A program made the position numbers and the translations under genes. From a virus (lineage: Duplodnaviria > Caudoviricetes): a stretch of DNA of 64,000 nt. Below, in pieces: positions 59,002-59,153 of this stretch. The stretch is from the IMG/VR virus record IMGVR_UViG_3300028591_000098, positions 99,396 to 163,395 of that record; one strand, given 5' to 3'. The notes below the pieces were generated by a model, which saw only the letters and a list, made by a program, of their open reading frames with translations, had not been told where the DNA came from and searched no databases. Positions within the stretch are counted from its first letter, which is position 1; each line of letters opens with the position of its first letter.

Positions 59002-59120
59002 TTTCGTAAAATTTATATATTTATTTAAGAAGTATATGTTCGTACTCATAAACTTATGTAAAATGAACATATGAAAAATTACATAAGCTCTCTTAAAATC
59101 TTATATAAGTTTTACGGAAA
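59002..59120 (-). promoter_or_regulatory. putative translational attenuator hairpin
   Basis: mRNA UUUCCGUAAAACUUAUAUA pairs with UAUAUAAAUUUUACGAAA directly before the ATG at 59000; nested inner stems. Confidence 0.7.
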
Positions 59121-59153
59121 ACCTCTAATATCAATCTACCAATGTTGCTTCAT
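59112..59153 (-). CDS. putative leader peptide MKQHW(TAG)IDIRGFP
   Basis: ATG AAG CAA CAT TGG TAG ATT GAT ATT AGA GGT TTT CCG TAA with A-rich upstream context. Confidence 0.6.

Follow-up and report, generated by a model that had tools for sequence, protein, structure and literature searches.

In the ermCL-ermC, secM-secA and mifM-yidC2 pairs a short open reading frame (ORF) lies ahead of the regulated gene. The start of that gene is sequestered in a helix whose 5' strand is in or next to the leader ORF, and a ribosome sitting on this strand opens the start. Their input acts on a stalled chain and is a drug, a secretion force or insertion into the membrane. The trpL, hisL and pheL leaders are enriched in the codon of the sensed tRNA, and the fate of the ribosome at this codon decides downstream expression. 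In prfB (release factor 2, RF2) an early in-frame UGA gauges termination against alternative decoding; escape is by a +1 frameshift, and the release factor is what is sensed. We analyzed a window of 64,000 nucleotides (nt) of megaphage DNA (Caudoviricetes), which is the terminal 64 kb of the 163,395-bp IMG/VR record IMGVR_UViG_3300028591_000098 (positions 99,396 to 163,395; estimated completeness of the record 64%). The window carries a leader with a short upstream ORF (uORF) interrupted by an in-frame TAG. This leader stands between a tRNA gene with anticodon CUA and an operon of four genes, named here A to D. Judging from the window and its relatives, the leader is probably a translational gate that reports nonsense suppression.

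In logic the leader belongs with the unmasking systems of the ermCL and secM kind, with the tRNA-sensing attenuators and with prfB, yet it is a member of none of these families. As in ermCL, secM and mifM, a short ORF precedes the regulated gene and contributes the 5' strand of a helix over its start, and we propose that a ribosome on this strand would open the start. The input, in contrast, would be read-through of a stop codon by a dedicated tRNA. The leader has none of the arrest motifs of those systems, and the start region is without a Shine-Dalgarno (SD) sequence. Its one or two W-TAG repeats resemble the tandem Trp codons of trpL, and the fate of the ribosome at the sensed codon is again proposed to decide downstream expression. 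However, the sensed codon is a stop, so the alternative is termination rather than pausing, and the output appears to be translational, with no choice between terminator and antiterminator. The early in-frame stop is shared with prfB, whereas the factor sensed would be a suppressor tRNA of the same module and a separate downstream cistron would be controlled.

A TAG placed in a leader peptide was used in synthetic switches to make transcription depend on a suppressor tRNA (PMC6412442, section 6). Leader TAG and suppressor tRNA appear to be tied to downstream expression in the same way here. The synthetic switches were engineered for unnatural amino acids, use orthogonal tRNA/synthetase pairs and expose a Rho utilization (rut) site, while the present leader is natural, conserved and appears to act on initiation. 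Phages recoded to genetic code 15 or 4 (bioRxiv 10.1101/2021.08.26.457843) are likewise low-GC phages with a phage suppressor tRNA, in which TAG is rare as a stop; the genome analyzed here differs from them in that it is not recoded and has internal TAGs only in the leader and in gene D. The same work, the main survey of phage recoding, reports suppressor tRNAs in some standard-code phages, and the words "leader" and "peptidyl" are absent from it. In full-text literature searches we found no account of a leader in nature that is gated by a stop codon and adjoins a suppressor tRNA. If our reading is true, this would be the first natural gene switch, as far as we found, with stop-codon read-through by a dedicated tRNA as its input, and a natural counterpart of the synthetic amber-in-leader circuits. 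The suppressor tRNAs of standard-code phages, so far without a known target, would gain one: an operon whose leader, and in clade I also its last gene, only that tRNA reads.

The leader and its two neighbours in the window consist of the following parts.

59260 to 59332, minus strand: predicted amber-suppressor tRNA, anticodon CUA (ARAGORN; 41.3 bits on the Rfam tRNA model, gathering score 29)
59154 to 59183, minus strand: A/U-rich stretch before the uORF start, without an SD sequence (from the sequence)
59112 to 59153, minus strand: leader uORF, M K Q H W TAG I D I R G F P TAA, 13 codons (from the sequence)
59136 to 59138, minus strand: gate codon TAG, codon 6 of the uORF (from the sequence and its conservation)
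58551 to 59000, minus strand: gene A, 149 aa ("MENKE.."), with a predicted occluded start (ORF)

The codons of the uORF are ATG AAG CAA CAT TGG TAG ATT GAT ATT AGA GGT TTT CCG TAA. On the minus strand the ATG is at 59153-59151, TGG at 59141-59139, GGT TTT CCG at 59123-59115 and TAA at 59114-59112. The ATG of gene A (59000) sits 111 nt 3' of this TAA. In most leaders an A/T-rich TAACAAAT..AAATT-like sequence stands ahead of the uORF ATG. A search for sigma-70-type promoters gave 19 matches compared with 19.3 in shuffles, and no promoter is named. Bypassing as in T4 gene 60, with take-off at TGG-TAG and landing at the TGG in ATGGAA, was also considered and was rejected, as the landing frame hits a stop after five codons.

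Relatives of the locus were collected in two rounds. The first, with one search anchored on a protein and three scans of IMG/VR by pattern, added 15 loci (16 with the window). The second was anchored on alignments of gene D, and not on the leader, and brought in 26 viral loci and 80 from metagenomes. The number of distinct homologous leaders in IMG/VR and metagenome contigs is 53-59, according to the way in which duplicates are removed. A gated leader was present in 57 of the 80 metagenome loci found through gene D; the remaining 23, all but one, have at most 1130 nt of upstream sequence. In the first-round loci the flanking intergenic sequences cannot be aligned, and the start, length and frame of the uORF, the TGG-TAG pair and the tail are retained. 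Frame, length and TGG-TAG pair are conserved in the 38 distinct leaders of the group that includes the window (clade I).

Other forms of the leader were found as well. The order in clade II is a uORF M-K-S-F-W-TAG-I-x-x-Q-F/H-W-TAG-L..., gene B, gene D without an internal stop, and tRNA(CUA). Clade III has a uORF M-K-K-N-S-F-W-TAG-..-F-W-TAG-L-K-K-I-R-G-P-D.., then genes B and D, with tRNA(CUA) downstream. Thus both clades have two TGG-TAG pairs per leader. The leader of locus L170 reads M-K-H-TAG-I-L-T-I-N-P-P-TAA. In the TGA form (L069/L110 and L169) the uORF is M-(x)-M-K-R-I-TGA-T-R-N-K-G-P-..., and a tRNA(UCA) follows directly after gene D.

Every homologous leader retains an in-frame stop, and no sense codon was observed in place of the internal stop. 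The scan in which codon 6 was unconstrained gave matches with TAG only. The stop codon and the linked tRNA agree throughout: 51 distinct leaders have TAG with tRNA(CUA), two have TGA with tRNA(UCA), none is mismatched, and six are in loci too short to show the tRNA. The tRNA(UCA) of the TGA loci scores about 60 bits on the Rfam tRNA model. A preliminary description of this DNA had given the window uORF exactly as written above (minus strand, 59153..59112) and had suggested that its TAG works as an amber gate. The relatives speak for this suggestion, since the internal stop is invariably kept and is TGA exactly where the linked tRNA is UCA.

If the suppressor were always present in infected cells, UAG would be a sense codon and the uORF would be a constitutively decoded small ORF or a vestigial N-terminus, with ordinary coupling or a remnant of an extended gene B and no sensing. 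Co-transcription of the tRNA with the operon is probable, as the tRNA lies 37-195 nt upstream of the operon or directly downstream of it. Moreover, the frame continues into gene B in 12 distinct leaders, suggesting that the uORF and gene B were once one ORF. Both points favour constitutive decoding, but we consider it unlikely. A codon without a role should drift to sense somewhere, as it did in gene D of L010, L013 and clades II and III, and here the gate codon instead changes along with the tRNA anticodon. The internal stops are also confined to one operon of standard-code genomes, with up to two in 13 codons, and are kept in every leader.

Synonymous variation was found on both sides of the gate in the 38 clade-I leaders (codon 3, CAA in 17 and CAG in 21; codon 11, GGT in 35 and GGA in three; codon 13, CCG in 29 and CCA in nine). 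Taking the clades together, the codon of the Arg past the gate is AGA (15), CGT (13) or AGG (1), and that of Pro is CCG, CCA or CCT. L076 and L082 encode the same Val-Arg as GTC AGA and GTT CGT, respectively. The two TGA leaders differ after TGA, until the tail, only by the synonymous changes CGT/CGG, AAC/AAT and CCA/CCG. From this pattern of substitutions we infer that the stretch after the internal stop is translated. With coding-type substitution on both sides of the stop in homologous leaders, the uORF first noticed in the window proved to be conserved.

The 12 distinct leaders mentioned above have no stop for about 40 more codons, up to and into gene B. Leaders of this kind occur at loci L076, L082, L163, L164, L167, L174, L177, L180-L182, L185, L186 and L188. 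They have two TGG-TAG pairs, and the linker (..YKPFPT-x-KEYN-x-LII..) is conserved at the protein level. Since the frame runs into gene B, read-through in these fused leaders would make an N-terminally extended gene B product.

The tRNA(CUA) of the window is the final gene of a tRNA array (63935-59260, minus strand) and ends 106 nt 5' of the uORF ATG. A homologous tRNA with CTA in the anticodon loop was found in 16/16 first-round loci, 79-148 nt 5' of the uORF, and its acceptor stem shows compensatory changes among these loci. It is weakly similar to the neighbouring tRNA-Trp(CCA). By structure and anticodon the CUA cloverleaf is a putative amber-suppressor tRNA, and decoding of UAG in vivo is predicted from the coding signature after UAG. 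A scan of the leader region with Rfam detected tRNAs only and nothing in the leader itself.

The RNA that extends from uORF codon 7 to gene A codon 5 (59135..58986) was folded without constraints. The minimum free energy (MFE) was -29.3 kcal/mol, compared with -18.2 +/- 3.1 for dinucleotide shuffles of the same stretch (z = -3.63; 0/200 as stable). The final codons of the uORF close a structure of about 130 nt onto the start of gene A. The helices are as follows.

59116 to 59122, minus strand: P0 5' strand, GUUUUCC, within uORF codons 11-13 (MFE and RNAalifold)
58992 to 58998, minus strand: P0 3' strand, GGAAAAC, the G of AUG and codons 2-3 of gene A (MFE and RNAalifold)
59091 to 59115, minus strand: P1 5' strand, running from the third base (G) of the Pro codon through the stop into the sequence past it (pair listing)
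59006 to 59030, minus strand: P1 3' strand, -6 to -30 ahead of the gene A AUG (fold and cognate ranking)
59034 to 59090, minus strand: interleaved helices S1 (59090-59079/59061-59050) and S2 (59072-59065/59041-59034) (crossing-helix score)

P0 continues into P1, and the helix spans -30 to +8 relative to the AUG. Beyond P0 the MFE structure contains the helices GUAAAA (59115-59110)/UUUUAC (59011-59006) and UUAUAUA (59108-59102)/UAUAUAA (59019-59013). The preliminary description had paired the F-P-stop codons and the bases after them with the 18 nt just before the ATG, in a 17-bp stem. The long-range stem is present, and its inner part consists of the two helices just named. Its register had to be corrected in part, because the conserved G-F-P codons pair with AUG-GAA-AAC and not solely with the 18 nt preceding the ATG.

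The G-F-P codons were paired with the start of the next gene by RNAalifold in 15/15 clade-I leaders, and P0 belonged to the MFE structure of each leader folded, the 15/15 clade-I leaders with a masked central region among them. In most of the masked folds P0 extends to GUUUUCC(G/A)UAA with UUAUGGAAAAC, so the AUG itself is predicted to be paired. Of the synonymous changes, CCG to CCA replaces a G.U pair of P0 by A-U, and GGT to GGA makes the helix weaker. The start ATGGAAA is shared by three unrelated families of downstream proteins; together with the invariance of P0 this points to an RNA-level constraint on the start of whichever gene follows. P1 covaries freely, and the cognate 5' and 3' strands rank first or second of 15 in 12/15 leaders. 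As the MAFFT alignment of leaders (A1) was out of register for P1 and S1, covariation was assessed by comparing cognate with non-cognate duplex energies and by shuffles, and no covariance model was used.

Complementarity to the next start is a property of all clades. In 41/41 unfused leaders the 3'-terminal codons of the uORF, or the nucleotides just past its stop, show complementarity to the region -30..+9 of the leader's own downstream start. The mean duplex energy was -18.8 kcal/mol for cognate and -13.1 kcal/mol for non-cognate pairs, and 0/20000 permutations reached the observed mean (p ~5e-5). Therefore the long-range pairing seen first in the window is upheld by covariation, with a tail in every clade that fits the downstream start of the same locus. 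Between clades the occluding duplex differs in sequence, as in these examples.

L072: 5' strand GUAUGAU, 3' strand AUCAUAC
L075: 5' strand AAAUUCUAGUAUA, 3' strand UAUACUAGAAUUU
L079: 5' strand UGAUAUAUUUU, 3' strand AAAAUAUAUCA
L069: 5' strand UACAAUCAU, 3' strand AUGAUUGUA
L169: 5' strand CAAUCAAUUU, 3' strand AAAUUGAUUG
L170: helix of 15 bp, from the base after the first of two tandem TAA codons

In the space between the two strands of P1, S1 and S2 are the best crossing pair of the leader (score 42; shuffles 25.9 +/- 3.7, p ~0.003). The best crossing pair beats dinucleotide shuffles at p <= 0.01 in 11/15 leaders. The same topology, at the same positions and with unrelated sequences, was found in L002, L003, L004 and L009, and by eye also in L027, and RNAalifold reports 6-7 double changes in two S2 pairs. 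Either an H-type pseudoknot or a pair of mutually exclusive hairpins could result from the two helices. We rejected a role of S1/S2 as a pseudoknot that stimulates read-through in the retroviral manner, as its first base is about 21 nt 3' of the TAA and about 45 nt 3' of the TAG; such elements lie less than 10 nt from the stop.

If S1 and S2 of clade I are alternative structures, they could also serve control of transcription. Termination at UAG would then uncouple translation from transcription and lead to Rho-type or intrinsic termination inside the leader, as in the tna operon and in the synthetic amber-in-leader switches, and the synthetic version does work so (PMC6412442, section 6, Fig. 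8). This explanation has, in our estimate, a low probability. The terminator scan found none at 59000-59153, and no helix of the window leader, S1 and S2 included, is followed by a U tract; the same result speaks against attenuation of the trpL type. In addition, the complementarity targets the start-codon region in all clades, among them some in which the leader is merely 53-71 nt long and has no S1/S2.

The strong covarying RNA structure would also suit a structured RNA with an untranslated uORF, whose sequence serves folding or protein binding, for example as an autoregulatory pseudoknot. The leader of T4 gene 32 is an example of such an element. P0 alone could explain the invariance of GGUUUUCCGUAA. 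This is nevertheless a very improbable account of the leader, because the ATG, the in-frame stop and the fixed frame are kept across clades that are otherwise unalignable in nucleotides. Arg switches between the AGR and CGN families, the changes after TGA are synonymous only, the fused forms stay open for 40 codons, and stop codon and anticodon agree.

The tail of the uORF could, on the other hand, act as a peptide. In this case W-x-I-x-I-R-G-F-P would stall the ribosome at Pro-stop by nascent-peptide arrest of the SecM, RAPP/RGPP or TnaC kind, the stall would open the start, and UAG would be secondary. A tail I/V-R-G/S-(x)-P is found in each of clades I to III, written in different codons, G-F-P-stop is invariant in the 38 clade-I leaders, L170 ends in P-P-stop, and Pro before a stop codon is a slow-termination context. 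However, the Arg of the RGFP motif stressed in the preliminary description is not kept in most close relatives. Before G-F-P, Arg is found in 11 of the 38 clade-I leaders and Leu in 19, and the rest have Asp, Ser or Asn; thus Arg is missing from most tails (D-L-G-F-P, E-D-G-F-P, N-S-G-F-P). SecM arrest occurs with Pro-tRNA in the A site. Its motif FxxxxWIxxxxGIRAGP is not matched by the window leader, where W-(TAG)-I-D-I-R-G-F-P is spaced differently and ends at a stop, and only a loose I-R-G-x-P likeness recurs. In TnaC release at Pro-stop is inhibited in a ligand-dependent manner; Pro-stop is invariant in clade I too, and the spacing differs (W5, D8 and P13 here, W12, D16 and P24-stop in TnaC). 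The arrest peptides ApdA, ApdP and ApcA have a C-terminal R-A/G-P-P core (PMC12992588). None of the leaders found has this core, the window having R-G-F-P, and none has RAPP, RGPP or SecM spacing. The G-F-P codons double as a strand of P0, and the fused leaders have no stop after the motif. Taken together, arrest is very unlikely to be the main mechanism.

Our preferred reading, translational gating by read-through, agrees with the position of the helix. Pairing starts 16 nt past the first base of the TAG in nearly all clade-I leaders. A bacterial ribosome with a stop codon in the A site covers roughly 12-13 nt past the first base of the stop. Thus a ribosome at the TAG should halt just short of the helix, and one at the terminal stop must have opened it, if this predicted footprint holds. 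Ribosomes would initiate on the A/U-rich leader and arrive at the UAG in codon 6. Where release factor wins, they would terminate, the helix formed by codons 11-13, the stop and the following bases would stay closed, and the next gene would not be initiated. Where the phage tRNA(CUA) decodes UAG, the ribosome would proceed to the UAA and melt the helix. The freed AUG might then be entered by a new ribosome or by the terminating one; re-initiation by the latter is conceivable, as the helix brings the uORF stop and the AUG side by side. Pausing at G-F-P-stop may prolong the open state. The operon, including a hydrolase-like gene with its own in-frame UAG, would in this way be made only under active suppression.

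Initiation in the window genome is, as far as the sequence tells, independent of the SD sequence: SD-like cores were found upstream of 8/128 long ORFs, near background. For this reason the accessibility of the start site is the likely determinant of initiation.

Several observations weigh against gating of this kind. The retrieval patterns fixed TGG-TAG and part of the tail, so some of the invariance comes from ascertainment. Retrieval through gene D is free of this bias, yet the leaders in those loci had to be identified by their motif as well. The change from TAG/CUA to TGA/UCA counts as a single event in evolution, observed in two lineages. The 12 fused leaders need no unmasking, and unmasking may therefore be a clade-specific elaboration of a simpler read-through gating. 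P0 is invariant on both strands and has no covariation support of its own, so conservation of G-F-P is not cleanly assignable to peptide or RNA. Finally, the gene D homolog of L003 (581-934, minus strand) has TAA at its gate site, which a CUA tRNA cannot read, though the tRNA of this locus is CUA.

The operon behind gene A contains the following features.

58081 to 58539, minus strand: gene B, 152 aa, helical (ORF)
57858 to 58076, minus strand: gene C, 72 aa (ORF)
57553 to 57861, minus strand: gene D, 102 codons, predicted peptidyl-tRNA hydrolase 2 (Pth2) fold, in-frame TAG at codon 35 (57759-57757) (read with TAG as sense)
57543 to 57574, minus strand: intrinsic-terminator-like hairpin closing the operon, 13-bp stem followed by a T run (terminator scan)

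Gene A is present in 12/15 clade-I loci. Gene B was found in 8/15 clade-I loci and in every examined locus of clades II and III and of the TGA type. In the latter three groups, and also in L005 and L027, it is the first gene after the leader. For genes A, B and C no informative match came from PHROGs or Pfam. Gene A had no PHROG and only a sub-threshold Pfam hit, and the ESM Atlas returned no usable hit for it. The AlphaFold2 (AF2) model of gene B (predicted local distance difference test, pLDDT, 81) had no significant fold match in the PDB.

A homolog of gene D lies 505-1985 nt 3' of the uORF in 15/15 relatives. Its gate site is TAG in 12 of them, TAA in one (L003) and sense in two (L010, L013). 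The site falls in a variable loop, and its context is often W-TAG-I, like that of the uORF. Sequence searches, single and profile, gave no Pfam or PDB hit at E <= 1. In the AF2 model of gene D (pLDDT 91) the top Foldseek hits were all Pth2 chains. VIA-align gave seven Pth2 chains Z 8.0-8.6 over 94-98 of the 102 residues, and the unrelated fold that ranked next had Z 3.1. Invariant motifs D, Q-G-G-H-A and E-P-D-L..T are present. The model suggests that gene D has the Pth2 fold (PF01981), and a role as a hydrolase is predicted. The gated leader would thereby link suppression to an enzyme like peptidyl-tRNA hydrolase, which bears on how phages tolerate or use read-through and on stepwise change of the code.

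It is possible, though we put this forward only tentatively, that suppressor tRNA, cognate-gated leader, gene B and Pth2-fold hydrolase form a self-contained homeostat or sentinel for nonsense suppression. The leader would gauge read-through of UAG (or UGA) and switch on the hydrolase and its partner, which would clear the load of peptidyl-tRNA and stalled ribosomes or feed back on the suppressor. If so, any UAG-reading tRNA would trigger the module, and co-infecting recoded phages could be detected. The "orphan" suppressor tRNAs of standard-code phages would also gain a defined target and a control circuit.

The window has a GC content of about 24%, and blastn of the region against GenBank phages gave no match. 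In the record of the window (G000) the ORF cover (ORFs of at least 100 aa) was 0.88 with table 11 and 0.89 with TAG as sense. TAG ends 16/167 long ORFs, and read-through would extend them by just 0-30 residues. ORF cover was also normal under the standard code in G001 (376 kb, 98% complete) and in G005 (401 kb, 100% complete, clade II), and recoding of the whole genome (genetic code 15) was rejected for all three on this ground. G000 and G001 were both scanned whole for TAG-interrupted genes, and gene D was the sole convincing case. G001, a clade-I relative, has 65 tRNAs, and its tRNA(CUA) is again the final member of the array, followed by the uORF.

In the window array (59260-63935, minus strand) several tRNAs are 82-87 nt long (Trp, Thr, Met, Ile), and one at 60598-60665 was detected by Rfam and missed by ARAGORN. 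The array also encloses genes for an M23 peptidase (62174-62995) and a DUF559 endonuclease-like protein (63210-63842). Outside the window, at bases 60000-70000 of G000, the ORF cover rises from 0.76 to 0.90 with TGA as sense, which fits a long gene with an in-frame TGA or a broken gene.

Minor observations were made on some of the relatives. In L079, L080 and L081 (clade III) the uORF is preceded, at about 30-100 nt, by a stem GGAAGCT..AGCTTCC that has a large loop and a U run on its 3' side. A similar stem-closed element stands ahead of tRNAs in clade II. It could be a processing or terminator element. In L179 (2400-2995) the 5' part of the leader, including the first TGG-TAG, is swapped for unrelated sequence, and the second gate and the tail are kept. 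L079 also has an Rfam match to transfer-messenger RNA (476-836, plus strand; 54.4 bits, gathering score 47), encoded by the phage about 3.4 kb 5' of its gated leader. The 89-kb partial genome G004, the record of L069 and of loci L083-L087, encodes both tRNA(CUA) and tRNA(UCA), and its gated leader has TGA rather than TAG. The ORF cover of this genome rises from 0.56 to 0.73 with TAG as sense, and in its 10-20 kb bin from 0.45 to 0.94.

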